A DNA stretch of 61,969 nt, counting the filler, from Candidatus Woesearchaeota archaeon (GTDB lineage: Archaea > Nanobdellota > Nanobdellia > Woesearchaeales > BM511): assembly GCA_023266675.1 (NCBI GenBank). It is 5 parts of 5 records of this genome, joined end to end, with 100 filler letters (N's around TTAATTAATTAA, not from the genome) between each part and the next. Parts side by side here need not be neighbours in the genome. Positions count along the whole stretch, not along the records: positions 25,554 to 53,982 come from JAHFPP010000008.1; 4 more parts are not named here. The stretch is one strand, 5' to 3'. Position numbers and translations under genes: made by a program. Below are positions 2,107-50,211 of the stretch, one piece after another; the stretch's first letter is position 1; every line of letters starts with the position of its first letter. The notes below the pieces were generated by a model. The model did no database searches and was not told where the DNA came from. It saw only the letters and a program-made list of their open reading frames with translations.

Positions 2107-2204
2107 GAGCCCGTAGCTTAGCCTGGTGGAGCACTCGACTGATATAGGAATTCGTTCCTACAGAGATCGAGCGGTCCGGTGTTCGAATCACCGCGGGCTC
2201 ACCA
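2107..2204 (+). tRNA. tRNA-Ile(GAT) with 21-nt intron at 37/38 (2145-2165), CCA encoded
   Basis: Acceptor GAGCCCG/CGGGCTC, anticodon stem CTCGA/TCGAG, GAT at 2141-2143, T arm CGGTG-TTCGAAT-CACCG, relaxed BHB intron with AGGAA-TTCG-TTCCT hairpin. Confidence 0.95.
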
Positions 2205-2249
2205 TTTTTTATAATATTTTAAGTGAATTCTGATGTTTTGAAGAATTCG

Positions 2250-2303
2250 CTGTCTTTTGCTCGAGCTTTTGTAAAAGGTCGGTGGCAATCACCGCGGGCT
2301 CAC
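2250..2303 (+). repeat. Duplicate of tRNA-Ile 3' end preceded by an intron-like hairpin
   Basis: AATCACCGCGGGCTCAC at 2287-2303 is identical to 2186-2202. Confidence 0.85.
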
Positions 2304-15058: not shown

Positions 15059-15171
15059 CGCCGAGGCCGGGAGTTTCACCCGAACACGTTAAGTGTTGCA
15101 GAATTTGAACCCGGAAGGCGTTAGCCAGAGGAGTTTCAAACCTCCACAATACCTAGTTATGTGACCTCGGC
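15059..15171 (-). tRNA. Class II (Ser-type body) tRNA with GAA at 34-36; 31-nt BHB intron at 59/60 (15073-15103)
   Basis: Acceptor GCCGAGG/CCTCGGC-G73, D stem ACA/TGT, anticodon arm GAGGT-TTGAAAC-TCCTC, V arm GGC-TAAC-GCC, T stem CCGGG/CCCGG, BHB helix TTCA/TGAA with 3-nt bulges. Confidence 0.88.
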
Positions 15172-17060: not shown

Positions 17061-17061
17061 T

Positions 17062-24723: not shown

Positions 24724-25453
24724 ATGTCAGAAAAGGAATATTACGATGAGATTATAAAAAATCTTATAGAAAAAAAACCGTCGGAAAAAGAGCTGATGAA
24801 GCTTAAGGTGAAACTCTGCAAAAAGCATGGAGTGACAAAGATACCTACAAATGCACAGCTTATACTTCATGCGTCAGCTAGCGAGATAAAAAAAATTTCT
24901 CTAGTCACTAAGCCTACAAGAACAATGTCAGGAGTTGCGCCAATTGCACTCATGACTAAGCCAGCAAAATGCCCCCACGGCACATGCATATACTGCCCTG
25001 GAGGCCTTGGATCTGAATTTGGAGACGTGCCTCAGTCATACACAGGCCGTGAGCCGTCAACAATGCGCTCAATAAGAAATAATTACGACCCTTATCTCAT
25101 TGTTTTTAATCGTCTTGAACAGTACATAATACTAAACCAGAGCCCTGAAAAGACTGAAGTCATAATACAGGGAGGCACATTTCCAGCGATGGACAAGAAG
25201 TACAAAGACGAATTTGTCATGTTGATATTCAAGGCGATGAATGATTTCTCAGATGTTTTTTACAAGAATAAGGATGTTGATTTTCTTAAATTCAAAAAGT
25301 TTTTTGAACTTCCATGCGACAAGGATGACGAGAATCGTGCGCAAAGTATACGCGAAAAAATTCTTCTTTTAAAAGGAAATTCAACACTTAAAAAAGAGCA
25401 GAAAAGAAATGAGAAGTCAAGGATAAGGTGCATTGGTCTCACTATTGAGACAA
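24724..25453 (+). CDS. elp3: Elp3 tRNA U34 acetyltransferase (radical SAM), 3' truncated
   Basis: KPTRTMSGVA, CPHGTCIYCPGG, PQSYTGREP, QGGTF, GLTIET. Confidence 0.95.
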
Positions 25454-25553
25454 NNNNNNNNNNNNNNNNNNNNNNNNNNNNNNNNNNNNNNNNNNNNTTA
25501 ATTAATTAANNNNNNNNNNNNNNNNNNNNNNNNNNNNNNNNNNNNNNNNNNNN
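25454..25553. other. Artificial contig linker
   Basis: N44-TTAATTAATTAA-N44. Confidence 0.98.
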
Positions 25554-26473
25554 TTCTTTTTTATTAGATTAGTATAGTCAGAATAAGGCTTTGGACCAAC
25601 GAGGTAGTCTTTGTTTACAAATACTGTTGGCGTACCGTATATTCCTGAATTCTTCCCTTCTTCAATGTCTGCGTCAACCAACTCCTTTGTTTCCTTATTT
25701 GAATAGCATTTATTAAATGATGCCATATCTAAATTTAGATTGTTTGCAATGTTTTCAAAAGTTGCGTTGCTAAATTCCTGTGAAAGAAATAATGCGTCGT
25801 GGTATTCCCAGAATTTGCCCTGATTTCTTGCGCACTCAGACGCAATAGCTGCTTCATAGCTGTAATTATGCGTCATTATTGGAAAATGCTTGAATACAAA
25901 CAGATATTTGTCGCCGTATTCCTTCCTTAGTTTCATCATCTCAGGCTCTGCCTGCTTTGTATATGGGCATGTGTAGCATCCAAATTCTGTTATGACCAAG
26001 TTTGAAGAGGTATTTCCAAAATTTGGAGAAGCCCCAATTATTGGAGAGAGCAGTGGATAACTTGGTATTTCGCCAGTAACTGTGCAAACGCCAGTAGTTG
26101 AGTTGTGACCTTTAACTCCGGTGTTTAATGGGTCAAATATGCAAAATTGCGTGCTGTCTTTGCCGTTGCAGTTGCCGTATTCTACAAAGTTATAGACTGC
26201 AATTCCTGACTGTGCAATACTCCATATCATTAAAATTGTAAAAAACCAGGATATCCACTCAAAATATTTGTATGTGAATCGGCCAACAGACGGCGCTTTT
26301 CGCATTAAGTTTCCTGTTATCTGCGCCTTTAACCTTTTATCAAGGCCACTAGTGCATTTTCTTAAAGTCACCCGTCTAAGAACACAGTCTAGCGCTTCCT
26401 TTGCAATGACTCTGTATTTTGCGCTAAAGATTCCTAGTATCCCGAAAACAACGAGTGCGATTATGCATATCAT
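25554..26473 (-). CDS. Membrane-anchored DsbA-like thioredoxin-fold protein, 3' truncated
   Basis: EFGCYTCPYT, KHFP, QGKFWEYHDALF, GIYGTPT. Confidence 0.88.
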
Positions 26474-30200: not shown

Positions 30201-32065
30201 GTGGAGGGAATAGTGGCGGAGGAGGGAGTAGTGGTGTTAATGGAGAATATACAATTAACCACTCAGAATATTATGGCAATCTTTCTGATGATAGTATTTA
30301 TGTGAGAAAGTTTGTATGCACTGACTATGCAGGAAATTCAAAAACAATATCCTTTTCCAATCAGATAAATATCACTTACCCACCTTCAATAACAATTCTT
30401 TCCAACATCACTGTAAACGAAACTGATTTGATTAATTTCACAGTCAACGCTGCCGACCAGGATAATGACACTTTAACGTATTACATAAACAATCACAACT
30501 TTTCACAATTAAACAATAGTTTTTCGTGGCTGACAACGACAAACGACAGCGGAGTCTATAATATAATTATAATTGTGTCTGACAGCATATTCAACACAAC
30601 AGAGAGTTTTAATTTAACAATAAACGACGTTCCTGACAAAGACAAAGACAACATACCAGACAGCATCGACCCTGATGATGACAATGATGGAGTAAATGAT
30701 ACAAGCGACAAGCTTCTTGGATGTGGAAGTAGCATAAATACTTCAACAATGAATATGAGCCTAAAAGTTGATAACGCAACATTAAACAACACATATGAAG
30801 GCGAGAAGAATCTCACATTTTATGACGGCGAAAAACCGATAATTGATTTTATGTATAACTTCACAAATAGCACACTGGACCTTTATAGCATACGAATAGA
30901 AAAGCAGACAAATAATTCTCACGGACTAATAACTATCTCAGGACTTGAACTTCCAAATAACATGACAAAAATAGTCTATGTTGACAGATTAACAAATGAT
31001 ACAAACAGTGTTTGCGTTAAAGACTCAGAAAATACAAGTGTAAGCAGTCTTTGTGTTGATGCAGATGAATATCCAATTGACTGCCCGGGAACAAATAATG
31101 GATACGAGTGCACTCTTACAAATAATAACTTGACATTTAAAATAAGCGGACTCCATCATTCAGGTGTGAGCGAACAGACATACTGCGGTGACGGAACAAT
31201 TCAAAGCGGAGAAAGTTGTGAAGGTTCAAATTTAAACGGAAAAACATGCGCAACATATGGTTACAACGCTGGGTCGCTTTCATGCTCTAATTCATGCGCA
31301 ATAATCACATCAGGATGCTCAACAACAAGCAGTGGCAGTGGAGGCGGAGGGGGTGGCGGAGGAGGCGGAGGCTCATCATCAGGAGGCGGAGGAGGCGGTG
31401 GTTCTGTAGAAATTTATAATTTTGGAAACCTAAGCGAAACTGGAACTATGTTTATATCCAATGAAAAATATTCAGTGAGAGAGATATTTGTTAAAGTAAA
31501 TAATCTTGTTTTAAATGCAAAATTGTTTGTTGAAGAAAAAATAACAGTAAAAGATAATCCGTTAACTGATAAAAGAATTTACAAATATGTTGTTTTAAGC
31601 GGAAACGTTGAGAACGAGTTTAAAGAGGGAACAATAAAGTTTAGAATACCTAAAGTCTGGATTTCAAACACAACATACAATGAAAGCGAAATAATCCTAT
31701 CACAAGAAACAAACAATATTTGGAATGAATTATCAACAACAAAACTGGATACTGATGTAGAATATGGTTATTATTCCAGCAAGATAACAAAGATAGGAAC
31801 ATTTGCAATAGCACAAAAAGAAATCTTAAGACAAAAATCTCCAGAAAGCATCATTCCTAAAGAAAAGACAATAAAAACTGAAGTTAAAGCGATTAATAAT
31901 TCAGATAATAAAGAAACAGTTATTTTGTCAAACAATAAAAAAGACAATTCAGTTGTAAAAATAATAGTATATGCATTAGTTGCAGTGAGTATTATGACAG
32001 TAGTTGGATATGTTATAACAAATAAAAGAAAAAAAATAATTCATCATTCAAAACATCATAAATAA
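27209..32065 (+). CDS. Large membrane-anchored C1A (papain-like) cysteine protease with Ig-like, Ca-binding and PGF-pre-PGF-like domains
   Basis: LDWRN, DQGACGSCWAF, MHSVDIIGY, KNSWG; N-terminal DUF333-like repeat; DKDKDNIPDSIDPDDDNDG; Gly linkers; C-terminal TM and basic tail. Confidence 0.92.
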   Translation: MNRLKLFFISLSFLLILNITYAYVNPAMDLCMKQGYEYNVETNEDGSQTGYCVIKGEEYEVWEWYNSNNLKRDNQAKISTIEPISRDRSDNETQQINKSYNSQKTDNKFKSSTSKISNSRNDITDTTRGYTSPSLDWRNKDGQNWVSQIKDQGACGSCWAFSANGVMESRVKIDLNNVGYSVDLSEQDALTNNVYGGNCIDGGFEWYSFDYAKNTGIVKESCMPYGGSKCSNWQNEKMMLTDYARISANANSIKDAVTDYGPVTSYMVVCDGFDGTGIYSHVGDVWFDDSCWHDGGDGYYYLNMHSVDIIGYDDSSQYWIAKNSWGTGWGDNGFIKIAYSQSVYDYSSWHYAVWNLDGGDPRVFFLDDSYYVTGTDTLTIPTISAFFSNNSYARGDNNISFSANVQPKSIKQISSVRINGTDMSGIATGGIFTLSKKPSDFGCQDFEGYCNLLLTVIDDSGKSNTGEISIRIDDFAPRVTDFKIKNTDYYIKNQTLLLTVNVTDADISSVKINNASFTFSDNLYRFYVTPYEIGCLSNAVCVFNVTAIDAVGNTNYSESKIFFFDDVMPTINSVNNSDYIVRTGTNVTITVNATDNINISSVTAEGFELNYTDNFWIGNITLLGSGFINVTVIDFAGNRVNTNNTTLNNNFMVGYQIDDTPPIISNLQINPNHAKLNSHVNISFNIIDSHFRMLNISINNSIIRQESLDTINSYDYGYVYNISSNNTEGITTVEIIIIDEAENVVYANSTFIIDFTPPNITAVSPQNNSQIHTNYTWINLTTDESTICGENDEYNYIIFDTTPPAPFNGSPTGSVSSNLESGICGIDSEFFTNERADCRGSLANGTINKEFLTAGDSVTFNGINVRLVRCGAGNAVVDIGGTVYTINEGDIRNSNGIKVRVENIFNEEGTQYDMATVRLADSDSNIALPNEDYNTMNITFELSQEDDSVFSYSSRVQVNTTDEYSLYVKCKDMAGNLMSEGYSWSFIIGSVSCGSSNSGGNSGGGGSSGVNGEYTINHSEYYGNLSDDSIYVRKFVCTDYAGNSKTISFSNQINITYPPSITILSNITVNETDLINFTVNAADQDNDTLTYYINNHNFSQLNNSFSWLTTTNDSGVYNIIIIVSDSIFNTTESFNLTINDVPDKDKDNIPDSIDPDDDNDGVNDTSDKLLGCGSSINTSTMNMSLKVDNATLNNTYEGEKNLTFYDGEKPIIDFMYNFTNSTLDLYSIRIEKQTNNSHGLITISGLELPNNMTKIVYVDRLTNDTNSVCVKDSENTSVSSLCVDADEYPIDCPGTNNGYECTLTNNNLTFKISGLHHSGVSEQTYCGDGTIQSGESCEGSNLNGKTCATYGYNAGSLSCSNSCAIITSGCSTTSSGSGGGGGGGGGGGSSSGGGGGGGSVEIYNFGNLSETGTMFISNEKYSVREIFVKVNNLVLNAKLFVEEKITVKDNPLTDKRIYKYVVLSGNVENEFKEGTIKFRIPKVWISNTTYNESEIILSQETNNIWNELSTTKLDTDVEYGYYSSKITKIGTFAIAQKEILRQKSPESIIPKEKTIKTEVKAINNSDNKETVILSNNKKDNSVVKIIVYALVAVSIMTVVGYVITNKRKKIIHHSKHHK

Positions 32066-32091
32066 TATATTTTTACAATTAAAGAAAATAG

Positions 32092-32326
32092 CGCCGCGGC
32101 TGGGACTTCCACCAAACCTTTTAAGAAAAGGTTTAACAAAACAGTTCGGACTATTTCAAAAAAGAAATAGTCCTTAGCCTCGAGCGTCAACGGACGAAAC
32201 GGTTGTTTGAACCCAGAAGGCAGTTAAGCCAGCGAGGTGTCAAAAACTTATTTTTGAGCACGCAAAAAATTTAAAAAATTTTTAAGCGTTTCAGTTCGCC
32301 GTCATACCGACTTAGACGACCGCGGC
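32092..32326 (-). tRNA. Class II (Ser-type body) tRNA with GAA at 34-36; introns at 37/38 (~32238-32288) and 59/60 (32106-32205)
   Basis: Acceptor GCCGCGG/CCGCGGC-G73, D stem GTC/GAC, anticodon arm GCGAA-CTGAAA^C-CTCGC, V arm GGC-TTAACT-GCC, T stem CTGGG/CCCAG. The anticodon-intron boundary is ambiguous by about 1 nt. Confidence 0.82.
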
Positions 32327-32336
32327 ATCATTGCGA

Positions 32337-32522
32337 CACAAATTTTATATACTTTGACAACATTATTAGTTATCAGAGGTTTCAGTTCGTTGCAGTACCG
32401 ATTTAGATGACTGCATTTTTTCTTTTTTATTTATTTCAGAATTAACGATTTATATACCTCACGCGTCCATGTCCTGTGTCCAGTGAAGCGTTTTATCGTC
32501 GACAAATAAGTGTCCAGTGGAT
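32337..32522 (-). repeat. Upstream module shared with 15221-15400
   Basis: Same two TATA blocks and TGTCCAGTG repeats. Confidence 0.85.
32374..32414 (-). pseudogene. Degenerate intron-less copy of the 5' half of the adjacent tRNA
   Basis: CAGAGGTTTCAGTTCGTTGCAGTACCGATTTAGATGACTGC resembles the spliced form CAGCGAGG|TTTCAGTTCGCCGTCATACCGACTTAGACGACCGC. Confidence 0.75.
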
Positions 32523-32610
32523 AAAAAATAAATTATAGTTTAATATTGTCTTTTAAAAGTGGTAACATTAAAGAAAGGTTTATATACCTGATATTGATAA
32601 CTGAGGATTT

Positions 32611-34092
32611 ATGACAAATCATCAAGCTGATAGTGAAATGTACGGCGGGAAAGCTGCTAGTTTAATTGCCCAGTATGAAGCTGGAAACACTGATTTTCTT
32701 TTCCCTTTCACATTAATTGACCCTGATAAAGAAAAACCGACTTTTGATTTCGAAGGCTTGCAGATTGTAAGAGGTTCTGCTGCTGGCGACGAAAAAGGAC
32801 TGGTTGATGTCATAAAAACAATTCAAAATGTATCATCCAAAGATTTGAATTGTGAGATAGATATTGATTTACCAAGAAGAGAAAATTGGAGGTCTAATTA
32901 TATTAATAGTATGATGGATTTTCATAAAATAAGATCTGTACGTAATTCTATGAGTTATATAACTTATACTGATGATGAGATGAGAAGATTATTGATTGCA
33001 CTTGGAAAAGGTACTCTTTCACCAATAGATGAAATCATAAAAGATTCTAAAAGAGATGAAGTTGTATCCTTTGCAAAATGGGAAGGCAACATAGACTATA
33101 ATGGCGTTAAAAGTGTGATTATATCCCCTCAAAACATAGATGAAAGAAGAGGGCAGATAATTGAACACCCAAATATGGAAGGACACTACATAATTAATGT
33201 TGTTAATGCGGTTGTTAAAGACACAAGTGATATGAGAAGAGACCGAATTTATATGGATGAGATATTAGCGGATTCTTCAGGGAATATAGTTAAATTTGGA
33301 ATAAATAGTGTTGGAGAAAAGACATCTCCAAAAGAAGTTAAAGCAATAGTTGAGATGAAAAGAAGAGCCAAGGAGGTTGGGTTTATTTCTGGCTCTAAAA
33401 GTTCACAGGTTGAATTTGGTTTCTTTAATAAGGCACAAAAGTTAGAATCAAAAAAATATCAATACGCTGCAAAACCAAAATCACCGATAATATTTTATCA
33501 AGAGAGGGAATTTAGACCGTTTGACTTTGATGACCAATTTAATCCACAAAAATATGTATTCAACAGATTTGGAAGAATACCGCAGGAAGGTTTAGAATTA
33601 AGAGTTGTAGTAGTAGAAGAGAGTATGGATAGAAGTTTATTAAATGATGGTGTTCCTTCAATATACACTCCAGGTGCATCAAAAGGTATAGTTGGTGAAT
33701 CTTATCTTGATGTCGGACTCGCTTTAATGGCTGATTTAAATTTTAGACCAGAGAATATGCACGCTTATTTAGTGCCGATGAATACAAAGAATGGAAGCTC
33801 GCTTGAACATGGAAATTTTAGGTGGGCATCAAAAGCGCCAATTTCGTTATTAAAATTAAGGATAGGAGACCGTTCTTACTCTGATGATTACAGAACCGGA
33901 GAAATGATAATGTTAACTCCTGATTTAAGGATATCTAATTCCTCTACAAGTTCACAAATAAGTCCCCATGATGCACTTAGCTTGGCGTTAGTTCAGCTAA
34001 CTGATTCTCATAATGAGTTAAAAAAGAGCTTATCAAGAATGGGTGATACTCCTCTTGATGATTTGTATTTGCCGTCTCCTGACAAAATATAA
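32611..34092 (+). CDS. Hypothetical protein, weak PPDK/PEP-synthase ATP-grasp-like motifs
   Basis: YGGKAASL, IVRGSAAGDE, QVEFG, FYQER. Confidence 0.55.
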   Translation: MTNHQADSEMYGGKAASLIAQYEAGNTDFLFPFTLIDPDKEKPTFDFEGLQIVRGSAAGDEKGLVDVIKTIQNVSSKDLNCEIDIDLPRRENWRSNYINSMMDFHKIRSVRNSMSYITYTDDEMRRLLIALGKGTLSPIDEIIKDSKRDEVVSFAKWEGNIDYNGVKSVIISPQNIDERRGQIIEHPNMEGHYIINVVNAVVKDTSDMRRDRIYMDEILADSSGNIVKFGINSVGEKTSPKEVKAIVEMKRRAKEVGFISGSKSSQVEFGFFNKAQKLESKKYQYAAKPKSPIIFYQEREFRPFDFDDQFNPQKYVFNRFGRIPQEGLELRVVVVEESMDRSLLNDGVPSIYTPGASKGIVGESYLDVGLALMADLNFRPENMHAYLVPMNTKNGSSLEHGNFRWASKAPISLLKLRIGDRSYSDDYRTGEMIMLTPDLRISNSSTSSQISPHDALSLALVQLTDSHNELKKSLSRMGDTPLDDLYLPSPDKI

Positions 34093-34162
34093 AAAAGAAG
34101 TCTAAGGATTTTCTAAGTTGTTTCAGTAATTAAGTTATAACATAAAATAAATTATATAACTC

Positions 34163-34786
34163 CTACTTCATCTGGTTCTTTTTCTTGACTCGCTTTGTTC
34201 GAAACAATGCTTCTCTTTCTGCTTCGTCAAGTCTGAACTGGATGAATGCTTTTTGTTTTGCAAGCATTGGCATGACTTTGAATTCAAGCGCGTTTACCCG
34301 TCTTTTTGTTTTTTCTATTTCAATAAGAAGTTTTTTCATTGCGGTCTCAACTTCAGCTGCTCTGACAACTAGTTTTGTAAGCTGCTCATAAGCTTCAACA
34401 GATTCATCAATCATGTTTGATGTTGTTATTACTGAGTATCCTTTGTGGTCAAAAGTTTTTTTGATGTCTTCAGATTTGATTGTAGGAACTGTGACTCCCA
34501 TTATATTTTTTGTTTTGACTTCAATTGGCGGCCTGTTTTGTATTGACAAAGCGAGTGATTTTATTTTCATGTCTGTTTCAATAACCCTTGCCATGTTGAA
34601 CTTCTGCGTCGCTTTGATGTACGCCTCAGTAAGTTCTACACGTATTGTCTTTGCTTCTTTTAGTATTTCAAAAAATGCAAGTATCAAACCGTCTCTTTTT
34701 TTCTTTAGTAAATTATGGCCAGCTTTAGCTAGCTTAATCCTGTTCTTTAGCTTCATCAATTCGCTTCTAGTTGGTTTAATATTCAT
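34163..34786 (-). CDS. atpD: A/V-type ATP synthase subunit D
   Basis: PTRSEL, LLKKKRDGL, NIMGV, EIEKTKRRVNALE. Confidence 0.96.
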   Translation of the reverse strand: MNIKPTRSELMKLKNRIKLAKAGHNLLKKKRDGLILAFFEILKEAKTIRVELTEAYIKATQKFNMARVIETDMKIKSLALSIQNRPPIEVKTKNIMGVTVPTIKSEDIKKTFDHKGYSVITTSNMIDESVEAYEQLTKLVVRAAEVETAMKKLLIEIEKTKRRVNALEFKVMPMLAKQKAFIQFRLDEAEREALFRTKRVKKKNQMK

Positions 34787-34830
34787 TGTTATTACCTTTT
34801 TTAGGGCTATTCACTTTTATGAATAGACCA

Positions 34831-34866
34831 TTGCGCGTCAACCGAGCGTAACCGGTTGGTGATATT
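34831..34866. repeat. 36-bp hairpin element, copy 1, between 30-bp direct repeats (34758-34787, 34867-34896)
   Basis: TTGCGCGTCAACCGAGCGTAACCGGTTGGTGATATT; 35/36 identical to 38392-38427. Confidence 0.9.
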
Positions 34867-34911
34867 AATTCGCTTCTAGTTGGTTTTATGTTCATTTTGA
34901 TAACTCTTGTT

Positions 34912-35038
34912 TAAATTACAAGCATCGGTCCTCGCGGTTAATTTGATATCGCAAGTTCTGCGTCTCCGTAGGAGCCATCCCTCCGCGACGAACTTAATGT
35001 ATTTCTTAAGTGCTTGCGGATTTGATGCTTGTAATTTA
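34912..35038. mobile_element. MITE-like element with 15-bp perfect terminal inverted repeats
   Basis: TAAATTACAAGCATC (34912-34926) / GATGCTTGTAATTTA (35024-35038), GC-richer structured interior. Confidence 0.55.
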
Positions 35039-35043
35039 TGTAA

Positions 35044-36522
35044 CTATTTTTTCTTTTTAACGTCGTGTTTTTCAGCTTTCTTTTCTGCTTTGTGAGATTC
35101 TTTCGCTTCAGGTTTTTTTTCGTCAGCGTCATCTACTTTCTTTGCTGTCATTGAAGTTTCTTTTCCGTAATACTGCTCTTTAAGCGCTGGCGAGAGTCTT
35201 GATAAGTCTTTTGCAGGTATTGATTTAAACATGTCCCATGAAAGGTCAAGTGTTTGCTCAATTGTCCTGTTCTCATTCTTTCTTTGTGTGACAAATCTTT
35301 TCTCAAATTCTTCTGCGAATTTTAAAAGTCTCTTGTCTTTGTCTGAAAGCGCTTCTTCTCCAACGATTGCAACAAGGCCACGAAGGTCTCTTCCTTCTGC
35401 GTAGTTTGCGTACAGCTGGTCTGAAACGTTTTTGTGGTCGTCTCTTGTTTTTCCTTTTCCTACTCCAAGGTTCATAAGCCTTGACAATGATGGAAGGATA
35501 TCAACTGGAGGGTAAATGTTTTTTCTGTGAAGTTCCCTTGAGAGAACTATCTGGCCTTCAGTGATGTATCCTGTTAGGTCTGGAATCGGGTGTGTTATGT
35601 CGTCTCCAACCATTGTCAATATGGGGATTTGTGTTATTGAGCCTTTTTTGCCTTTTATCATTCCAGCTCTTTCATAAATCTGCGCTAGGTCAGTGTACAT
35701 GTATCCTGGGTATCCTCTTCGTCCTGGCACTTCCTCTCTTGCTGCTCCAATCTCCCGGAGTGATTCGCAGTAGTTTGATAGGTCTGTCATTATGACTAAC
35801 ACGTGCATGTCGTTTTCGTATGCTAGGTACTCTGCTGCTGTGAGTGCCATTCTTGGTGTGACTAGTCTTTCAACTGCTGGGTCGTCTGCAAGGTTCAAAA
35901 ACACCACTGATCTTTCGAGTGCTCCTGTTCTTTCAAAGTCTGCGATGAAGTATTGTGCTTCTTCGTTTGTGATTCCCATTGCTGCGAAGACTACGACGAA
36001 TTTTTCGCCCTGTCCTACAACTGTTGCCTGTCTAGCTATCTGCAAAGCTATCTCGTTGTGCGGAAGACCGGACCCCGAGAATATTGGAAGTTTTTGTCCT
36101 CTGACTAGTGTGTTTGTTGCGTCTATTGTTGAGATTCCTGTCTGGATGAAGTCTGCTGGCTGCAGTCGCTGGTACGGGTTTATTGCTGCGCCAAGGATGT
36201 CTCGTCTGTCGTCGCTTATGATTTCTGGTCCGCCGTCAATTGGTGAGCCTGCGCCGTTTAGTATTCTTCCAAGCATGTCTTTTGATACTGGTAGCTTGAT
36301 GTTTTCGCCTAGAAACGTTAGTCTTGCTTCTTTGTCGATTCCTGATGTTCCTTCAAAAACCTGTACGACAACTATTTTGTCTGATGTGTCTAGCACCTGT
36401 CCTTTTTTTATTGTGCCGTCTGATAATGCTATTTTTACAAGGTCTCCGTATCCTACTGGGTCTGTTTTTTCTACAAAGACTAGTGGGCCTGCGACCCTTG
36501 TGATTGTTTTATATTCCTTCAT
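35044..36522 (-). CDS. atpB: A/V-type ATP synthase subunit B
   Basis: [53 protein letters not shown]; Lys/Glu-rich tail. Confidence 0.98.
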
Positions 36523-36583
36523 AAAAAACACCCTGTGTTTTGTTGAAGCTCAAAAAACTTGTTTTTTGTTTGTTTCATTTTAT

Positions 36584-38320
36584 TCACTCCAATTTTTCTA
36601 CTTCAGCTTCCATTTCTTTTTGGACGCTTAAAAGTTTTTTCTCGTAATCTCTTTCGAATTTGACTTCGCCGATTTTTTCTTTTGATTCCATTTCAACTAT
36701 TCTTGCAACTGGCACTCCATTTTCAAGAGCTGTTACGGCAAGCTTGTTAAAATGCATTATTGTCTTCATAATCATGTATGATTTTTTTAGTTCGCAGAAT
36801 GTGTCAACTTCGTGAAACGCGTTTTGCTGCAGTAAGAATTCTCTTATCAGTCTTGCTGTTTCAAGTGTTATCTGCTGTTTGTCGGGTAGTGCGTCTGACC
36901 CTACAAGCTGCACGATTTCAAGGAGTTTTTCTTCGTCTTGTAAAAGTCCCATCATTGTGTTTACCATTTCTCTCCAGTCTGATGCGACGTTTGCAGAGAA
37001 CCATGGTTCAAGCTGGTCTTGGTAAAGGCTGTATGATGTCAGCCAGTTTATTGACGGAAAGTGTCGTCGCTGAGCGAGTTTTGCGTCCAGTGCCCAGAAT
37101 GTTTTTATGACTCTTAGCGTGTTTTGTGTTACTGGTTCTGAGAAGTCTCCACCAGCAGGGCTTACTGCACCTATTACTGTTACACTACCTTCTTTTTTTG
37201 TTCCGATAGGTATTACTCTTCCTGCTCGCTCATAGAATTCAGCAATTTTTGTTGATAAGTATGCTGGGTATCCTTCTTCACCTGGCATCTCCTCAAGTCG
37301 TGAAGAAATTTCTCTCATTGCTTCTGCCCATCTTGATGTTGAGTCTGCCATCAAAGCCACTGAGTATCCCATGTCTCGGTAGTATTCTGCTATCGTGATT
37401 CCTGTGTATACTGATGCTTCTCTTGCTGCTACTGGCATGTTTGATGTGTTTGCGATTAAAACTGTTCTATTCATCAATGGTTTTCCTGATTTTGGATCTT
37501 TTAGGTGAGGGAACTCTGTTAATACTTCTGTCATCTCGTTTCCTCGCTCACCACATCCAATATATACTATGATGTCTGCGTCTGACCATTTTGCTAGCTG
37601 CTGCTGTGATACTGTTTTTCCTGCTCCAAATGGTCCTGGAATTGCTGCGCATCCTCCTTTTGCAAGCGGGAATAGTACGTCAAAGACTCTTTGGCCTGTG
37701 ATTAGCGGCATCTCTGGCGCTAGTTTCTTGAATGATGGTCGTGGTTTTCTTACTGACCATTTGTGTGCGAGTTTTAGTTCGGTTTTTCCGTCAACCATTC
37801 CTATTACTTCGTCGATGTTGTATTTTCCTGATGATATCTCAGTTATTACTCCGTCAATACGTGGCGGAACCATTATTTTGTGGAAGACTCCGTCTGTTTC
37901 TTCTACTTCGCCGATGAATTCTCCTGATTTTATTTTGTCTCCTTTCTTGACAGTTGCTTTAAAGTCCCATTTCTTTTTATGGTCTAGGCCCGGTACGTCT
38001 ACTCCTCGTAGGATGAAGTTTCCCATTTTCTCTGCAAGTATTGGGAGCGGTCGCTGGATTCCGTCGTAAATTGATGTTAAGAGTCCTGGTCCTAGTTCTA
38101 CTGAGAGTGATTCTCCTGTGTTTAAAACTGGCTCGCCAGGTTTTAGTCCTGATGTGTCTTCGTATACCTGGATTATGACTTTTTCGTTGTCTATCTGGAT
38201 GACTTCACCCATAAGTTTTTCTTTGCCGACACGTACAACGTCGTACATTCTTGCGTCGAGACCTATTGCCACTACAACTGGTCCTGCGATTCTAAAAAGT
38301 TTTCCTTCTTTGCTTGTCAT
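36584..38320 (-). CDS. atpA: A/V-type ATP synthase subunit A (no intein)
   Basis: [39 protein letters not shown]. Confidence 0.98.
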
Positions 38321-38391
38321 TTTTTCATTCACCTTTGAGTTATTCGTTAATATGATTTCTAGACAATATGCGTTTTTGCATATTGTCTGAT

Positions 38392-38427
38392 TTGCGCGTC
38401 AACCGAGCGTAACCGGTTGTTGATATT
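38392..38427. repeat. 36-bp hairpin element, copy 2, between perfect 32-bp direct repeats (38327-38358, 38425-38456)
   Basis: ATTCACCTTTGAGTTATTCGTTAATATGATTT duplicated; second hairpin AGACAATATGC/GCATATTGTCT. Confidence 0.9.
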
Positions 38428-38458
38428 CACCTTTGAGTTATTCGTTAATATGATTTTT

Positions 38459-38767
38459 TTATTTTTTTGCGAGGATATCTACGCCTATTGCTTTGATTAT
38501 CATTCGCCTGATGTTTTCCTGCTCTGCTGTTTCAGATAAGACTATGCAGACTGGTTTTACTGAGTCTTCAAGTTTTAGTCTTGTTCTTTCATGTAAATAT
38601 TTTACTGCTTTGTTGTTCATGACTATTATCCCGTCAACTTTCTCGTCTAGTATTTTCTTTATTTCTTTTTCTGCGGAGTTCTCATTGACTTCAATAATAT
38701 CATTTACTCCTGCTAGCTTGAATCCTAGTGTAAATTCCTCTTCTCCAAAAATTATGAAGCGTGACAT
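38459..38767 (-). CDS. atpF: A/V-type ATP synthase subunit F
   Basis: GEEEFTLGFKLAGV, KAIGVDI; operon position. Confidence 0.93.
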   Translation of the reverse strand: MSRFIIFGEEEFTLGFKLAGVNDIIEVNENSAEKEIKKILDEKVDGIIVMNNKAVKYLHERTRLKLEDSVKPVCIVLSETAEQENIRRMIIKAIGVDILAKK

Positions 38768-38858
38768 TTTTATTCTCTCCTTTCTTGATATTTTTTATCG
38801 ATTTTATATTGATTAAAAGTGTTAGCTTGAAAAAATGAAGTTTTTTCATTGCGTGACA

Positions 38859-39920
38859 TTATACAATCAACTCCTTTTGTATGAATGACTCTTCAAGTCC
38901 GAGCTGCTTTGATTTAACTATCAAATATAGGTTTCTTAGTTCGACTTCTTTTGCAAACATGTATGCGAGTGTGATATCAATTGATAGCGGCGGCTGGTGG
39001 CGTCGTGTTGTTATATTTTTTAGCATGAATCTTTTTAGCGACAAATCAAGCTCTGACAAAGTGTTTGATTTAATTAGCTCGTTTATTCCGTTTTTGACTA
39101 TTGTTTCGTACGGCGTTTTTTCAAACTCCTTTGCAACAGCATCGTATGTTTTTGCTGCGATTATCTTTTCCCATTTCTGTTTTGAAAGCTTTGACGCGCC
39201 TGTTATGAATATAAGGTTTTTTATCACTTCATCGCTTATCTTTTCTCTTTTGAATTTTAGTATAATCTTGATGTTTGTGGCGTCAATTTCTGCGCCGATG
39301 AATCTTCTAAAGCCTTTTACTTCGATTGGTATTTTTCCTGCGAATGCAACAAGGGACGAGTAAAATATCTTGTCTAGCGCAAGCTCGATTATCTCAAGCT
39401 CTTTTTTCTCCTTAAAGGTTTTTAATGCAAGTTTTATTTCTGGCACTCTTGAGAGTTTTGCAAGGTCTATTATTTTCTCTAAGTCGTCCTCTGATATCAT
39501 CTTGTTTAGATTGTCAAGTGTAAGCTTTCCTGCAGGGATAAGGAGTTTTCTTATCTCTTCATTCTGTGTTTTTGTGAATTTTCCCCTAATTATTGTTTTG
39601 ATGTTGTGAAAATCCTCTTTTTTTAGGTATTCTGTTACTATTGATTTAACTGCGCCTTCAGTAACTCTTCTAAGTTTTGAAAATGAGTCTGTTAAGTTTT
39701 CTCTTATTGCTTTTTCTATTAATGCATTGCCTGAGAGTGAGACGCCGTATCTGTTTATCTGCTCCTTGTAGTCGAAGTCCTGCAGGTATTTTGTTATCTC
39801 GCCTATCTGCATTTTAAGCAGTTTGTCGTAGTCTGCTTTTTTCAAAAGCTTTGCTTTCATAGCGCTTACTCTTGCGTAAGTGTATGGATACTCGATTTTG
39901 TAGCTTCGTTGTTCTGCCAT
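38859..39920 (-). CDS. atpC: A/V-type ATP synthase subunit C
   Basis: YPYTYARVSAMKAKLL, EIDATNIK, KEVELRNL. Confidence 0.93.
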   Translation of the reverse strand: MAEQRSYKIEYPYTYARVSAMKAKLLKKADYDKLLKMQIGEITKYLQDFDYKEQINRYGVSLSGNALIEKAIRENLTDSFSKLRRVTEGAVKSIVTEYLKKEDFHNIKTIIRGKFTKTQNEEIRKLLIPAGKLTLDNLNKMISEDDLEKIIDLAKLSRVPEIKLALKTFKEKKELEIIELALDKIFYSSLVAFAGKIPIEVKGFRRFIGAEIDATNIKIILKFKREKISDEVIKNLIFITGASKLSKQKWEKIIAAKTYDAVAKEFEKTPYETIVKNGINELIKSNTLSELDLSLKRFMLKNITTRRHQPPLSIDITLAYMFAKEVELRNLYLIVKSKQLGLEESFIQKELIV

Positions 39921-39946
39921 TTTTTTAAGTTTGTTGATTTAGTTTT

Positions 39947-40492
39947 TTAAAATATTTTATGCGCAATCTTTTTTAGTGCTTCGCGTCTTATCTCTTCAAG
40001 TATTGTTTCGTACCTGTTGTCAACTCTAAGTTTTGTATCTCTTGTTTCTGCAATTACGCCGCCAAGCATATCCTGTGTCTTTATGTCAAAGCTTTTTGGA
40101 AGCCATTTCTTTGTCTTCTCATTGCATATGACATGTGCAACGTCAATCTGACTCATTGCATCCTTGAGGAGTATGTTTGTCAGTGCGTTTTGTGTTTTGT
40201 CATCAAGCGTTTCTATTTTTTTAACAGCGTTTTCAAAAACCTTGTCAAGCATTTCTTTTTTTCCTGAGAGCTCGATTTTTTTAAGCTCAAACTTGACTGA
40301 CGCTTCCATCATATGCGCAATGCTAGACATGAGCGCTTCTATTTCAGCGTCAGTTTTTCTGTTTTGCGCCTCTATTTCAGAAACTGCTTCATTCTCGATA
40401 GCCTTTGCTTTATTCTGTGCTTGTGCTATCTTTTCAGCAGCTTCTTTCTCTGCCAAATTCAATATTTCTTCGCGTACTGATTCTATTCCCAT
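39947..40492 (-). CDS. atpE: A/V-type ATP synthase subunit E
   Basis: N-terminal coiled coil; GGVIAE...RVDNRYE. Confidence 0.9.
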   Translation of the reverse strand: MGIESVREEILNLAEKEAAEKIAQAQNKAKAIENEAVSEIEAQNRKTDAEIEALMSSIAHMMEASVKFELKKIELSGKKEMLDKVFENAVKKIETLDDKTQNALTNILLKDAMSQIDVAHVICNEKTKKWLPKSFDIKTQDMLGGVIAETRDTKLRVDNRYETILEEIRREALKKIAHKIF

Positions 40493-40554
40493 TTTGTTTT
40501 TTATTTTTTCTATTTTTATTTTTATATATTTTAAAAAAAATTAATTAAAGGTGT

Positions 40555-40785
40555 TTATCCTGCCATTCCAAGTATTTTAAGAGCTATTACTAGTCCAAAA
40601 ATGATTAATGATTCTGGTAAAACAGTCATTAATATTCCTTTACCAAATAATTCTTCTTTTTCTGCTAAAGCACCAACTGCTGCTGCTCCTATTGGTCCTT
40701 CACCCATACCTGCGCCTACTGCGCTTAATCCGACTGCAAGGCCTGCGCCTACAGCTAATAGTCCTGTTCCGATGTCTACTGTCAT
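40555..40785 (-). CDS. atpK: A/V-type ATP synthase proteolipid subunit K (single hairpin)
   Basis: GAGLAVGLSAVGAG, LPESL ion-binding Glu; SD GGAGG. Confidence 0.93.
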   Translation of the reverse strand: MTVDIGTGLLAVGAGLAVGLSAVGAGMGEGPIGAAAVGALAEKEELFGKGILMTVLPESLIIFGLVIALKILGMAG

Positions 40786-40868
40786 TTTCTTTTCCTCCAA
40801 ATTGTTTTTTTATTTTTATTTTTGTAAATTTTTTATTTGTTTTTTATTTTATGATTGTGAAGTATTAT

Positions 40869-42773
40869 CTAATTCAATTTTTGTTTTTCTCCAAATGGTA
40901 TAAACTTTTTTCCGCCGCCTGTATAAAATCTTTTGAAAAATTCCACATAATGTAGTCTTAGTGAATGTATAAATGGACCAAATAATCCAAGGATGATATT
41001 AATTAGATGTCCTATTATTAGTAATAATATTCCAAAAATTATCATTACTCCCCCTTGATTAAACATTATTCCGACATTCTCATTTATTATTAATGCAAGT
41101 TGAACAGATGCTAGTCCGACTGCCATTAATCTTGCATAAGAGAGTATATTTGATAGCAATGATGGTAATTCAATTATACCCAATGCACCTTCTCCCATGA
41201 AAATTAATACAACTCCAATTATTGATATTGCTATTAATATTGGTATTGGAGGTATTGTATAATTTAAGATTGTTGCATATACTCCCTCCACTACTTTAAA
41301 AAAATAAACTAATATCCAGTTGACTAGCGGTATTAGCAGTATCCAACCAACTTTCTCGTATACTGCGTGCTTTAGTCCGTGGTGATGATAAGTGTTGATG
41401 AAGCCAAGTATCAGTCCAAACAGCACATGAAGTATTCCTATGATTATCGCGACAGCGAGTAACTCGTTTATCTGGTGAGCCCTTGATAATAAATGTGGAA
41501 GCTCAATGTGAAGATAAGGTATGAATTCCTCTCCAAAGAATTCTCCAAATATGAATCCAAAGATTATTGTGCCAACGCTTGACAGCATTAAGATGTTAAG
41601 TATCTGGCTTACTGCTCCCTTGTTGAATTTCATTCTTAAAAGCGCGAATATTATAAATGTTAAAAACCCGTAGCCGATGTCTCCAAGCATGAATCCAAAG
41701 AACAGCGGAAATGTGAGGAACATTAGTATTGTTGGGTCGACTTCAAAGTATTGCGGCATTGCAAAAAGGTCTATTAGGAACTGGAATGATTTTGCAGGTC
41801 TTGGATTGTTTAAGAGTACTGGTCCAAGTTCTTTCTCTTTTAGCGGTATCAGGTTGACAAAGATTTTGTTTTCAGTTACTTCTTCTAGTGTTTCCTTGAC
41901 TTTTTCAAACCTTTTTTCAGGAACCCATCCGCTTATCACGTGAGTGTTTTTTGATGCAGCAAATTTAAGCGGGGCTTCGCATTTTTCATGCTCTTCTTCA
42001 AGAATTTCGTTTGCGTTAAGTATGAACTGTTCTGATTCTTTTTTTATTTGTGAAAGCCTTGTTTTCAATGTTTTTTCTTCCTTGACAAGTTCCCTGTTTA
42101 ATCCTTCAGTTCTTGTGTGCATATCAACAAACTGTGTTTTAACGCTTGGCATTAGTTTTCTTATTTCATCCTTTTCGATTCCAAGGAAATTGTTTTCTTT
42201 AAGTATGGCTGTTATCTCTGCTTTCTTTGCTTTTGGAGCCAGAATAAAAACAAGTCTTGCGCCGTCAACGTCTTTTGTAAGTATAAAGCTTGTTTCTGAC
42301 GTTGCCCTCACTGTTTTCTCAATGTCGCGCTTTACAAATCCGCAAAAGAATAGAGAGTTTTCATCGTTACTCCTTGCTGAGTCAAATTTTAATCCTTCAA
42401 ATGCAACGTGGTATGATTTTTGTTTTATTGCGAGGAGTGATTTTTTGTAGAAGTCTATTGTTTCAATGCTGTTTTTTAATTCGTCGTATATGTTGTTTAT
42501 CTCGTTTCGTATATTTTCTTCCTGCAGCTTTTCTCTTTGGAACTCTTTGTTTGAAAGGTTTATGTCTGCGTTTGACGCTATGCTTTTTGTCTTGATAACT
42601 AGCTCTGAAAGTTCTTCGCCGCGCTTTAGTGGATGCCCTATGTCAAAGTCTTCAGATTTCTCGTATTCTTCAATCTGTATTGCTTTTAGTGAGTATAATG
42701 TGTCAATGACTTTGTTTAATAGGTTGTTTGGAGCGACTATTCCAACCTTGACCATCTTTTGAGGCTTAAACAC
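40869..42773 (-). CDS. atpI: A/V-type ATP synthase subunit I
   Basis: EVDPT, FFGFMLGDIGYG, LSYARLMA, LRLHYVEFF. Confidence 0.96.
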   Translation of the reverse strand: MFKPQKMVKVGIVAPNNLLNKVIDTLYSLKAIQIEEYEKSEDFDIGHPLKRGEELSELVIKTKSIASNADINLSNKEFQREKLQEENIRNEINNIYDELKNSIETIDFYKKSLLAIKQKSYHVAFEGLKFDSARSNDENSLFFCGFVKRDIEKTVRATSETSFILTKDVDGARLVFILAPKAKKAEITAILKENNFLGIEKDEIRKLMPSVKTQFVDMHTRTEGLNRELVKEEKTLKTRLSQIKKESEQFILNANEILEEEHEKCEAPLKFAASKNTHVISGWVPEKRFEKVKETLEEVTENKIFVNLIPLKEKELGPVLLNNPRPAKSFQFLIDLFAMPQYFEVDPTILMFLTFPLFFGFMLGDIGYGFLTFIIFALLRMKFNKGAVSQILNILMLSSVGTIIFGFIFGEFFGEEFIPYLHIELPHLLSRAHQINELLAVAIIIGILHVLFGLILGFINTYHHHGLKHAVYEKVGWILLIPLVNWILVYFFKVVEGVYATILNYTIPPIPILIAISIIGVVLIFMGEGALGIIELPSLLSNILSYARLMAVGLASVQLALIINENVGIMFNQGGVMIIFGILLLIIGHLINIILGLFGPFIHSLRLHYVEFFKRFYTGGGKKFIPFGEKQKLN

Positions 42774-43119
42774 TAGTCTGGCCCCTTTTTTCTATTTTCT
42801 TGATGAAAAGCTCAACAACAACATCCGCTGCGGTGAAGGTTTTTTGCTCTGTCTTCTCTTTTTTTTCGCTAAACTTAGAAATTCCTTTTTCGATTAACGC
42901 CTTGCCTTTTTCGTCGTTTTCTTTCTTTGAAGTTTCGACAGCTGACGCTTTCTTCATATCCCTGCTATCTTTCGCTTCCTTAATCTCTGCCTGTGTTTTA
43001 TGCTTTGATTCAAGGATTATGTTTTCAGCTTTTTTTTCAGCGTCAGTAAAAACAGCATCAGATTTTACATCGATTTCTTTGATTTTTTTTATTGTATCCT
43101 TATTTATATTAACCATCAT
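42766..43119 (-). CDS. atpH: A/V-type ATP synthase subunit H/G
   Basis: Charged coiled-coil ORF first in the operon, overlapping atpI. Confidence 0.7.
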   Translation of the reverse strand: MMVNINKDTIKKIKEIDVKSDAVFTDAEKKAENIILESKHKTQAEIKEAKDSRDMKKASAVETSKKENDEKGKALIEKGISKFSEKKEKTEQKTFTAADVVVELFIKKIEKRGQTSV

Positions 43120-43226
43120 ATATTCTTACTCCACTTCATTCACACGTTTATCTACAAAAAAATTAGGGTCTTTATATACTTTTTTATTTTTTGTGCTGTT
43201 AGAAGAGAGATAAGTATTCAAAATAA

Positions 43227-43640
43227 TTATAGATTATACCACTTTCTTGAGAGTTCTATAACATCATTATCAACAAGAAGTAGGTTTTCAAGTGAATCAA
43301 GTCTTATAAAGTGAGGTATTGTCTCAAGTGAAGGAGTCAGTATCCCAGAATATGATGTGCAAAGAAAAGGCTGAAAATTAAAATCTTCAAACCCTTCTTT
43401 CATTTTAAGCCTGCTTGCGCTTGGGTCTATTGGCAATTTGTGAAGATATTGCAGCGAAGTTTCTAATCCAGTTTCTTCTTTAAGTTCACGTATAGCTGCC
43501 TGTTCAGGCGACTCTCCTTTTTCAACTCTCCCTGCCGGAAAGCCGTGAGAACCTTTTGGAAGGCGCGCATGCTCTGTATGTTCAACTAAAAGAACTTCAT
43601 TGTCTCTGTACAAAAGCACGCCGACACAGAAAGTAACCAT
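43227..43640 (-). CDS. Nudix hydrolase
   Basis: Nudix box GRVEKGESPEQAAIRELKEETG. Confidence 0.93.
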   Translation of the reverse strand: MVTFCVGVLLYRDNEVLLVEHTEHARLPKGSHGFPAGRVEKGESPEQAAIRELKEETGLETSLQYLHKLPIDPSASRLKMKEGFEDFNFQPFLCTSYSGILTPSLETIPHFIRLDSLENLLLVDNDVIELSRKWYNL

Positions 43641-43723
43641 AGAGGAGGATATTTTGATTTTTTATTTAAAGTTAACGCATACACCCTCAAAACAACGGTG
43701 TTATGTCTGTTAAGTGATAAAAT

Positions 43724-44320: not shown

Positions 44321-44358
44321 TAAACATTGATATATAGTCATGGTTTAGATTAAAAAAA

Positions 44359-50095: not shown

Positions 50096-50143
50096 TTTGT
50101 CTCCCCAATTCTTTCGCCAATTCAACAACAATGAAATTGTTGA

Positions 50144-50211
50144 GCGCCAAAAACTTTGTTTTTGAGCGGGAAGCGAGTGAGGGTTGCAAAAAAAACAATT
50201 TTTGAACCCTC
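50144..50211. repeat. Tandem hairpin element similar to the anticodon intron of the tRNA at 32 kb
   Basis: GCGCCAAAAACTTTGTTTTTGAGC vs intron GTGTCAAAAACTTATTTTTGAGC; followed by a GAGGGTT..AACCCTC hairpin. Confidence 0.6.

Follow-up and report, generated by a model that had tools for sequence, protein, structure and literature searches.

Short palindromic, modular and non-coding intergenic repeats include the REP/BIME sequences with their RAYT (HUH) transposases, and the palindrome-associated transposable elements (PATE) and miniature inverted-repeat transposable elements (MITEs) derived from IS200/IS605. HUH elements are not known to make target duplications. Rickettsia palindromic elements and classical MITEs are small structured repeats which are tolerated inside genes and RNA genes. 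The element at the centre of a model put forward by Sugahara and colleagues in 2012 is said to be 1.8 kb long and to encode a recombinase. Here we analyse a 61,969-nt stretch of DNA (the window) from a Candidatus Woesearchaeota archaeon (assembly GCA_023266675.1), and describe a family of small hairpin elements found in tRNA flanks, promoters and operon spacers, one copy of which makes up most of a bulge-helix-bulge (BHB) intron in the T-loop of a class-II tRNA-like gene.

Transposed BHB tRNA introns are described from the Thermoproteales (Fujishima et al. 2010, as related in PMC4090602, PMC10714607 and 10.64898/2026.10.13.758758). A 2014 review, which also treats tRNA genes as targets of integration, calls the mechanism of BHB intron transposition unknown (PMC4090602). 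According to a 2026 census of Asgard archaea, for which tRNA-to-tRNA copying, mobile elements and reverse transcription were tested, no general route emerges (10.64898/2026.10.13.758758). The incomplete tRNA sets of DPANN genomes have been taken to point to undetected disrupted genes (Kaneta et al. 2018, PMC5829648).

The family described here shows similarities to each of these systems without matching any of them. As with the Thermoproteales introns, one non-coding, BHB-bounded unit (modules A2+B2) occupies different tRNA positions: 37/38 in tRNA-His of the window's own genome (G000) and 59/60 in tRNA-Thr of a genome of the same family (G001). In contrast to those introns, the family also occurs in operon spacers, promoters and tRNA flanks and is mosaic and nested; its order-wide 5′ hairpin/pseudoknot and its target duplications of 12–48 nt are not part of the Thermoproteales introns as the cited accounts outline them. 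With REP/BIME and IS200/IS605-derived elements it shares a location in operon spacers and after genes, compensated hairpins, a mosaic structure and the lack of coding capacity. However, G000 is without a Y1 transposase and Y1_Tnp is weakly linked to the family's motif across the order; unlike HUH elements, the copies often have long target duplications. The 2012 model resembles our observations in tying intron gain to the insertion of foreign DNA into a tRNA gene, with partial tRNA copies nearby, whereas the inserts here measure 60–110 nt, are non-coding and multi-copy, and also have non-tRNA targets. Like Rickettsia palindromic elements and MITEs, the copies are small structured repeats, and an inverted repeat, short and imperfect (CAACC-TTT ... 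AAA-GGTTG), may mark their ends. They differ from MITEs in that no fixed-length short target duplication is found, flanking repeats being absent or 12–48 nt long, and in that no related autonomous element and no DDE_Tnp_1 match was found in G000. Tolerance would come here from splicing or from long target duplication and not, as in Rickettsia, from in-frame insertion. In the literature, supplements lying outside the search, we found no description of intergenic copies, of long target duplications or of the module A motif.

The window consists of five contigs (C30, C31, C32, C33 and C35) joined by linkers of the form N...TTAATTAATTAA...N. All five belong to G000, a metagenome-assembled genome of 1.22 Mb from a groundwater metagenome run (83 contigs, 34% G+C, completeness 95.9%, contamination 0.9%), so that the sites compared in the original prediction sit on different contigs of one genome. 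The 106-nt "repeats" at 8498–8619, 17054–17175, 25446–25567 and 53975–54096 are the contig linkers and not biology. G000 is fragmented and, because its contigs break at the element repeats, copy numbers given for it are lower bounds. The comparison genome G001 has an AtpD 80% identical to that of G000, and the order-wide sample comprises 151 genomes from 144 genera; G134, flagged as unpublished, provides one of the 26 motif-bearing genomes and one alignment row, and no claim is based on it alone. Standard tRNA finders report only 28 tRNAs in this 96%-complete genome, which we attribute to the disruption of tRNA genes by hairpin elements; the tRNA list behind the element-to-tRNA distances is incomplete.

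We consider it probable, from sequence comparison, that the T-loop intron of the class-II tRNA-like gene on C33 (Table 1) is an EndA-type BHB intron with a body that is mostly one copy of a non-autonomous mobile hairpin DNA element. The original prediction had described a 100-nt T-loop intron that begins with CAACCGTTTCGTCCGTTGACGC and continues as a long hairpin, and this was borne out, the RNA fold of the intron having a free energy of -31.9 kcal/mol (z = -4.4). About 90 of the 100 nt are a single copy of a mosaic repeat (modules A-B-C), which matches the element profile at E = 1.9e-19 (nhmmer) and is found at E = 5e-8 by a profile built from tRNA-flank copies alone. The borders form a BHB, CTGGG-TTCA-AA^C ... 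TGGA-AG^T-CCCAG (carets at the intron borders), with two 3-nt bulges, a 5-bp outer helix and a 4-bp central helix. ARAGORN calls a tRNA once 32205..32106 is excised; among 27,690 excision variants of 25 copies, this copy is the only one (1/25) whose removal restores a tRNA. Two EndA-family genes are present in G000, on C81 and C26 (PF01974 matches of 99 and 96 bits). A scan for BHB motifs (4 bp or more in the outer helix and a 4-bp central helix, G-U allowed) gave dozens of sites within 251 nt (32085–32335) and is too permissive for use on other copies.

G000 contains six class-II tRNA-like paralogues (on C33, C31, C57, C34, C66 and C78). Each of the six is interrupted at 59/60, and the introns share their 3′ end (TGAA/TGGA-AN^T); they are 29–32 nt long in five of the genes and 100 nt only in C33. 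The element therefore did not create the T-loop intron, and the suggestion that this intron is a snapshot of intron birth does not stand. Comparison of the paralogues indicates that the intron predates the element and that the element enlarged it or replaced its body while keeping the 3′ BHB half.

Parts of the T-loop intron match other loci of the genome at 100% identity over 44, 41 and 39 nt (blastn-short, E from 5e-19 to 5e-16). Iterated nhmmer searches found 25 A-B-C copies at E < 0.01 and a profile from tRNA-flank copies found 46 B′C copies; merged, these give 54 loci in G000, including both ATPase spacers, the tRNA-His intron and many tRNA flanks. Of the 37 loci tested, 34 are free of overlap with any open reading frame (ORF) of at least 100 aa. 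The central proposal of the original prediction, that the tRNA introns and the insertions between genes are members of a single modular, non-coding hairpin family spread in this genome, is sustained, and so is the expectation that further copies exist and that their similarity exceeds that among random AT-rich hairpins. The resemblance noted between the 3′ part of the intron and 2250–2288 is also real: the global alignment score is 14, which only a fraction of 0.0002 of random 39-mers of the genome reach (n = 5000, mean -8.1).

In the 25 G000 loci that were read, module A has the form AACCGTTTCGTCCGTTGACGC or AACCGGTTACGCTCGGTTGACGC. The inner stem of module B varies, with full compensation in 9/9 aligned copies, and module C is an A/T hairpin, CTCAAGCTTTT..AAAAGGTTGG. 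Further hairpin modules are nested in these, D inside C (inside A at C17) and E inside A. Since the C58 copy and a copy in G001 (G001:C15) combine an ATPase-type module A with intron-type modules B and C, the ATPase-type and intron-type variants belong together. The possible terminal inverted repeat, a short and imperfect one seen by eye as CAACC(G)TTT / AAA-GGTTG, doubles as the RNA closing helix.

The second intron of the C33 gene, at the anticodon, had been likened to 50144–50205 and, more weakly, to 36548–36570. This resemblance is weaker than the others. All that the sites have in common is a hairpin of A/T runs (YCAAAAA-N3-6-TTTTTGR, about 20 nt), which occurs at 9 loci against 0.5 expected; blastn-short gave no match at E < 10 joining the anticodon intron and its proposed counterpart. 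Two copies on C62 that lie within module A match the module E copy at 50120..50205 at 100% over 22 nt.

Beyond G000, public genomes were scanned for exact 17-mers of the intron-type module B, with 54 matches against about 70 by chance (a rough estimate); one of the matches was a real copy, in a record titled Woesearchaeota. BLAST with the tRNA gene gave 20 matches in G000 and, among 40 relatives, one real element copy, in G001. No Rfam family matches the element in the window and 10 related loci.

Module A has a much wider distribution. The pattern AACYGGTTAYGSTCRGTTRACRC, with at most 2 mismatches, occurs in 26/151 genomes and 25/144 genera, with up to 18 copies per genome, while the reversed pattern gave 0 matches in all 151 genomes. 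It is a nearly invariant 23-nt motif with a 6-bp hairpin, an 8-nt loop and a 2-bp pseudoknot, and module A of the G000 intron is a degenerate variant of it. In an alignment of 34 copies the stem and pseudoknot are paired in 96.6% of cells. Changes on both sides of a pair occur in 11 cells, a number reached by 0/500 shuffles, and slid controls pair at most 35% of cells; the pseudoknot pair 14:26 is CG 28 times, GC 4 times and never unpaired. Its contexts, read in 30 loci, are of four kinds: directly after GGTTCAAA^ in T-loop introns (5 loci), at the start of anticodon-side introns (3 loci), after a partial 5′ tRNA copy ending in the D-loop (about 10 loci) and in non-tRNA spacers. In T-loop introns of relatives the 3′ BHB half co-varies with the loop, reading CGAA where the loop is TTCG. 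Read in this way, module A lies across the order at the 5′ beginning of BHB introns in the T-loop, the anticodon loop and the D-loop. At five loci in five other genomes (L107, L109, L110, L112 and L117) it follows a conserved ...CCCCGC, with ...TTGATCAAACTT about 100 nt later; Rfam reports only neighbouring tRNAs at these loci.

Comparison with G001 provides evidence for movement. The atpB-atpD and atpF-atpA spacers of G001, in which G000 has an element, contain neither element nor duplication. At the Hef-like helicase/MFRKK... intergenic site both genomes have a copy, in opposite orientations, with A2 (ATPase-type) in G001 and A1 (intron-type) in G000. Within G000, element copies are nested in one another. 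The A2+B2 unit common to the tRNA-His intron of G000 and the tRNA-Thr intron of G001 is 80% identical over 65 nt (E = 1.6e-10). The G001 tRNA-Thr(GGU) gene is interrupted by a module-A intron at 59/60 and by a smaller one at 37/38, while the syntenic G000 gene is intronless (the flanking ORF is 74.7% identical over 391 aa). This pair gives real evidence of intron gain or loss; in G002 and G003 the corresponding site carries no tRNA gene, so that the direction of change is not fixed.

The two insertions in the ATPase operon had been described as lying in the same orientation relative to transcription, and this proved correct. The 24-mer CAACCGGTTACGCTCGGTTGACGC is present at 34835–34858 and 38396–38419, both on the minus strand (0 matches expected from 100 shuffles), each time followed by a hairpin, in the sense of the atpF-A-B-D genes. 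The direct repeats around the elements (Table 1) score 58 at the atpD site and 64 at the atpA site (L120, 32/32 nt), values each reached in 0/200 shuffles. Inspected by eye, the two copies show no convincing splicing motif and no closing helix. The idea that the element is tolerated because it is spliced out can be kept for the T-loop copy, which lies within BHB boundaries in a genome with two EndA genes, whereas outside introns tolerance is better explained by long target duplications.

Duplications of this kind are also found at tRNA genes. Downstream of tRNA-Ile, tRNA-His and tRNA-Arg there is in each case a B′C element, GGTGRC-AAT and a copy of the gene's own positions 58–76; at tRNA-Ile, 2287–2303 repeats 2186–2202, the 3′ part of the tRNA, at 17/17 nt. 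Such units of B′C and 3′ copy number three at tRNA-His and two at tRNA-Arg. The second and third tRNA-Arg copies have a mutated T-stem in common, which suggests that they arose from successive events. Upstream of tRNA-Val and tRNA-His a reverse-oriented B′C element is bounded by a copy of the 5′ 18 nt of the gene. Overall, 8 of the 35 listed tRNA genes have a partial self-copy within 52–121 nt, not counting tRNA-Arg, whose copies were read by eye. The TGRC-AAT before the distal copies of tRNA-Ile, tRNA-His and tRNA-Arg pairs with three of four T-loop bases, real T-loop introns having TGAA or TGGA, and is one base short of a full BHB half. The B′ hairpins at tRNA flanks are followed by T-rich tails, which the ATPase-spacer copies do not have.

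The tRNA-His arrangement is common to G000 and G001, which represent two genera, and consists of a module-A intron, a downstream B′C element and 3′ copy with CCA, and an upstream 5′ copy. In both genomes the distal 3′ copies carry CCA while the gene itself has C-TTTT, and the partial copies follow each genome's own compensating changes in T-stem and acceptor. Across the order, 13/29 evaluable module-A copies (11/27 outside G000) have a significant flanking repeat of 12–48 nt, and all but one of these 13 (12/13) have their upstream repeat end 0–7 nt before module A. The module-A copies without a flanking repeat are mostly true introns. Partial self-copies are not confined to G000, since an ordinary tRNA-Ser(UGA) of a relative in another family (L030, G007:C88) is surrounded by several partial copies derived from its 5′ and 3′ ends.

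Many element copies adjoin another motif, CACTGGACA, which has 35 sites in G000 against about 9 by chance (a rough estimate). It usually occurs twice, 34–41 nt apart, and the pairs lie just upstream of ...CGCGTGAGGTATATAAA; examples in the window are 32419–32478, 15296–15355 and 13055–13114. It resembles an operator associated with promoters, at tRNA genes and others. Two A-B-C copies, C83:11945-12036 and C55:11770-11855, have right flanks (TGGGACTTCCCCC and TGGGACATCCCCC) that resemble a 3′ BHB half and T-stem. Their excision rebuilt no tRNA with ARAGORN, and the two copies may sit in tRNA genes with several disruptions or in relics.

An HUH/TnpA(REP) protein or a reverse transcriptase had been proposed as a possible mobiliser, and the families searched yielded none. 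The search covered Y1_Tnp, the TnpB zinc ribbon, Cas1, DDE_Tnp_1, RVT_1 and Phage_integrase only, other DDE families not being searched, and G000 has no match to the first four. Across the order Y1_Tnp was found in 55/151 genomes, 12/26 of those with the motif and 43/125 of those without. Among the best 12 Y1_Tnp loci only one (1/12) has the motif at a distance of up to 1.5 kb, in a copy that is part of a tRNA D-loop intron. A HUH transposase as mobiliser is not supported by these observations. The only reverse transcriptase gene of G000 (C15:377-1657, 426 aa) lies on a 2.9-kb contig which carries 0/54 of the merged element loci, and its product comes nearest to the antiviral Drt2 family, with 315 bits against a family cut-off of 390; G001 and G058, which hold element copies, have no RVT_1 match. 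Two tyrosine recombinase genes were found in G000, one about 320 nt from a class-II tRNA-like gene and one about 1 kb from tRNA-Met; one of the two is probably of the housekeeping Xer type.

The six class-II tRNA-like paralogues deserve some further description. Besides the two in the window (Table 1) they lie at C57:7703-7818, C34:~24975-25085, C66:~16912-17030 and C78:1-114. They are serine-like, with a long variable arm and G73, and their anticodon loops read YTGANAC. The anticodons would be GAA (3 genes), GAU (2) and GAG (1), with no serine or usual leucine anticodon. ARAGORN identifies the spliced C31 gene as an 82-nt tRNA-Phe(gaa), and an ordinary tRNA-Phe is reported by neither finder. 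A BLAST search with one of the paralogous tRNAs against 25 relatives gave two weak matches only, both to ordinary tRNA-Ser genes; GCU and UGA are the loops of the ordinary tRNA-Ser genes in two relatives. Five of the six paralogues have, 52–86 nt upstream, a decayed copy of their own 5′ half (about positions 4–40, ending near 37/38). In addition to the copy listed in Table 1 these lie at 15259–15296 (minus strand) and on C57, C34 and C66. Between the decayed copy and the gene there is a second TATA box, and the copy retains the gene's own anticodon-loop variant. A custom search for more tRNAs with intact T-arm, acceptor and D-arm gave nothing new in 20 candidates. The tRNA-Ile gene of the window is misnamed by ARAGORN as tRNA-Tyr(ata) or tRNA-Ser(aga).

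Table 1. Features of the window discussed in the text; positions count along the whole stretch.
Feature	Position	Strand	Details
Class-II tRNA-like gene with two introns	32326..32092	-	Acceptor GCCGCGG/CCGCGGC, G73, anticodon loop CTGAAAC; read directly
BHB intron, exactly 100 nt, T-loop 59/60 (A59/U60)	32205..32106	-	A-B-C copy and 3′ BHB half TGGA-AG^T
Module A, degenerate G000 variant AACCGTTTCGTCCGTTGACGC	32183..32204	-	Aligned to the order-wide 23-nt motif; same variant in C47, C44, C83, C55 and C50
Module B, hairpin GGACTATTTC/GAAATAGTCC and tail GAACTGTTTTG	32139..32176	-	Identical to two copies on C8 over 41–44 nt
Module C, hairpin AAACCTTTT/AAAAGGTTT	32112..32138	-	B′C profile match; resembles 2250–2288
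52-nt intron at canonical 37/38	32237..32288	-	Unique among the six paralogues; E2-type A/T hairpin at 32240–32257
Decayed 5′-half copy of the same tRNA (positions ~4–39), upstream of the gene's TATA box	32379..32414	-	78% identity; local alignment score 33
Paralogous class-II tRNA-like gene	15059..15171	-	31-nt T-loop intron at 15073–15103
tRNA-Ile(GAU), 21-nt canonical intron, encoded CCA	2107..2204	+	Read directly; Rfam tRNA 52.5 bits
B′C element (2223–2283), TGGC-AAT, then second copy of tRNA-Ile positions 58–74	2205..2303	+	E = 2.3e-13
A2+B element between atpB and atpD	34803..34863	-	G001 site empty
48-nt direct repeats (34864–34911 and 34755–34802) around the atpB-atpD element	34755..34911	-	81% identical; duplicate the atpD start
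A2+B element, 66 nt, between atpF and atpA	38359..38424	-	G001 site empty
Perfect 32-nt direct repeats AAATCATATTAACGAATAACTCAAAGGTGAAT (38425–38456 and 38327–38358)	38327..38456	-	Duplicate the atpA ribosome-binding region
E2-like A/T hairpin CAAAAAACAAGTTTTTTGAGC, atpA-atpB spacer	36548..36570	-	Resemblance only
Module E copy, hairpin CAACAATGAAATTGTTG, with E2 hairpin CCAAAAACTTTGTTTTTGAGC at 50147–50167	50120..50205	+	94% over 34 nt to C11

According to the explanation we favour, copies of the element would enter DNA at tRNA gene ends, tRNA loops, promoters and short operon spacers, and insertion would often duplicate 12–48 nt of the target. The duplication would rebuild the end of the gene concerned, be it the 5′ or 3′ part of a tRNA, a ribosome-binding site or a gene start. 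Since the interrupted end is restored, such an insertion would be harmless even without splicing; in the case of a tRNA, RNase P or RNase Z would still meet a complete molecule. A copy inside a tRNA would persist only where BHB boundaries remain. In the C33 gene a 30-nt T-loop intron would have existed first; the element would have inserted into it or taken the place of its body, and the 3′ BHB half would have been retained.

Several observations weigh against this explanation. The BHB of the T-loop intron is relaxed, the inner helix being absent beside the 5′ bulge. Flanking duplications are missing at about half of the copies, and flanking repeats of A-B-C copies made of CACTGGACA had to be rejected as target duplications because they are a natural double promoter motif. 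No mobiliser emerged from the families searched. No empty/filled polymorphism was seen within the population, for which one DNA run, probably the source, was available as Logan contigs of about 6.5x that break inside the repeats; these stop at 32164/32179 and 38356/38427, and no joint removes an element. A metatranscriptome run of the same sample had no match over 31000–50900. Finally, that module A hardly varies between families could just as well reflect a conserved function, and all copies scored downstream of a tRNA (11/11) are co-oriented with it, which also fits a functional 3′-flank element.

These last points belong to a view in which the modules are functional RNA or DNA signals, such as terminator or processing hairpins of tRNA 3′ flanks or sites bound by a conserved protein, kept by selection and copied by local duplication or recombination. 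It would account for the proximity of 19/54 loci to a tRNA gene (within 200 nt, zones which make up 1.5% of the genome), for the T-rich tails after B′ hairpins, for the covariation of the folded pairs of module A and for the tRNA-His arrangement common to G000 and G001, with its partial copies that follow their own T-stem and acceptor. We nevertheless regard it as rather unlikely: the distribution is patchy, module A being missing in 125/151 genomes; sites are empty in G001 and one orthologous site has the opposite orientation; there are copies inside copies, and those upstream of tRNAs occur in both orientations; the operon-spacer copies have no T-rich tail and the target duplications would have no explanation. 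An RNA route, in which excised, ligase-joined BHB introns or chimeric tRNA-intron RNAs would be reverse-transcribed and the cDNA captured at staggered breaks or by recombination, seems unlikely. The variable length of the duplications and the short A+B forms without module C do resemble retroposition, the distal tRNA-His 3′ copies have CCA where the gene has C-TTTT, and G000 has a reverse transcriptase gene. Against this, the enzyme is nearest to a defence protein and is encoded apart from all element loci, genomes with element copies have no RVT_1 match, and CCA is no clear mark of RNA origin because several ordinary tRNA genes encode it here; the tRNA-Arg copies, moreover, are without CCA.

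The partial tRNA copies and short inserts might also be att-site scars left where integrase-bearing plasmids or viruses repeatedly integrated at tRNA genes and were excised imprecisely. The direct repeats do cover tRNA 3′ parts from the T-loop on, like archaeal att sites, and both tyrosine recombinase genes lie near tRNA or tRNA-like genes. Intron gain by such integration has been proposed (Sugahara et al. 2012, PMC3293823). But the inserts between the repeats form a conserved, non-coding family of 60–110 nt and are not random remnants, and the same element has equally long repeats at the ATPase spacers and other non-tRNA sites. As these non-tRNA repeats are unrelated to each other, a single attP is excluded for all sites; with one recombinase probably of Xer type, we think scars of this kind a very improbable source. 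Chance resemblance among AT-rich hairpins, which does describe the anticodon-intron similarity with its A/T-run hairpin, is refuted for modules A, B and C by E values down to 5e-19, by the absence of expected shuffle matches and by the reversed pattern, and as an account of the similarities overall it deserves practically no credence.

A mobile DNA element thus remains our preferred explanation, and it raises a broader, more doubtful possibility, which we offer tentatively: that a protein-less mobile element with a conserved 5′ hairpin/pseudoknot in Woesearchaeota-like archaea, making gene-end-restoring duplications of 12–48 nt, could provide a stepwise route to the birth of archaeal introns. 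Insertion at a tRNA loop or end would duplicate the flanking part of the exon; what is found at tRNA-Ile, tRNA-His, tRNA-Arg and tRNA-Val agrees with this. The gene would at this stage work unspliced. The redundant exon copy would subsequently decay and leave an obligatory BHB intron, the 3′ end of which would pair with the T-loop. The distal tRNA-His copies track the compensating changes of their own tRNA and encode CCA, and this allows the idea that they may already be alternative exons.

On the question of how BHB introns reach archaeal genes, the family described here gives something tangible to follow, for both the origin and the growth of tRNA introns. It includes both an intron and free-standing insertions, and its invariant structured 5′ module can be used to search for further members. 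It also supplies dated insertions, marked by a 32-nt repeat without mismatches and by sites that are empty in a relative, and intermediate states at the ends of tRNA genes.

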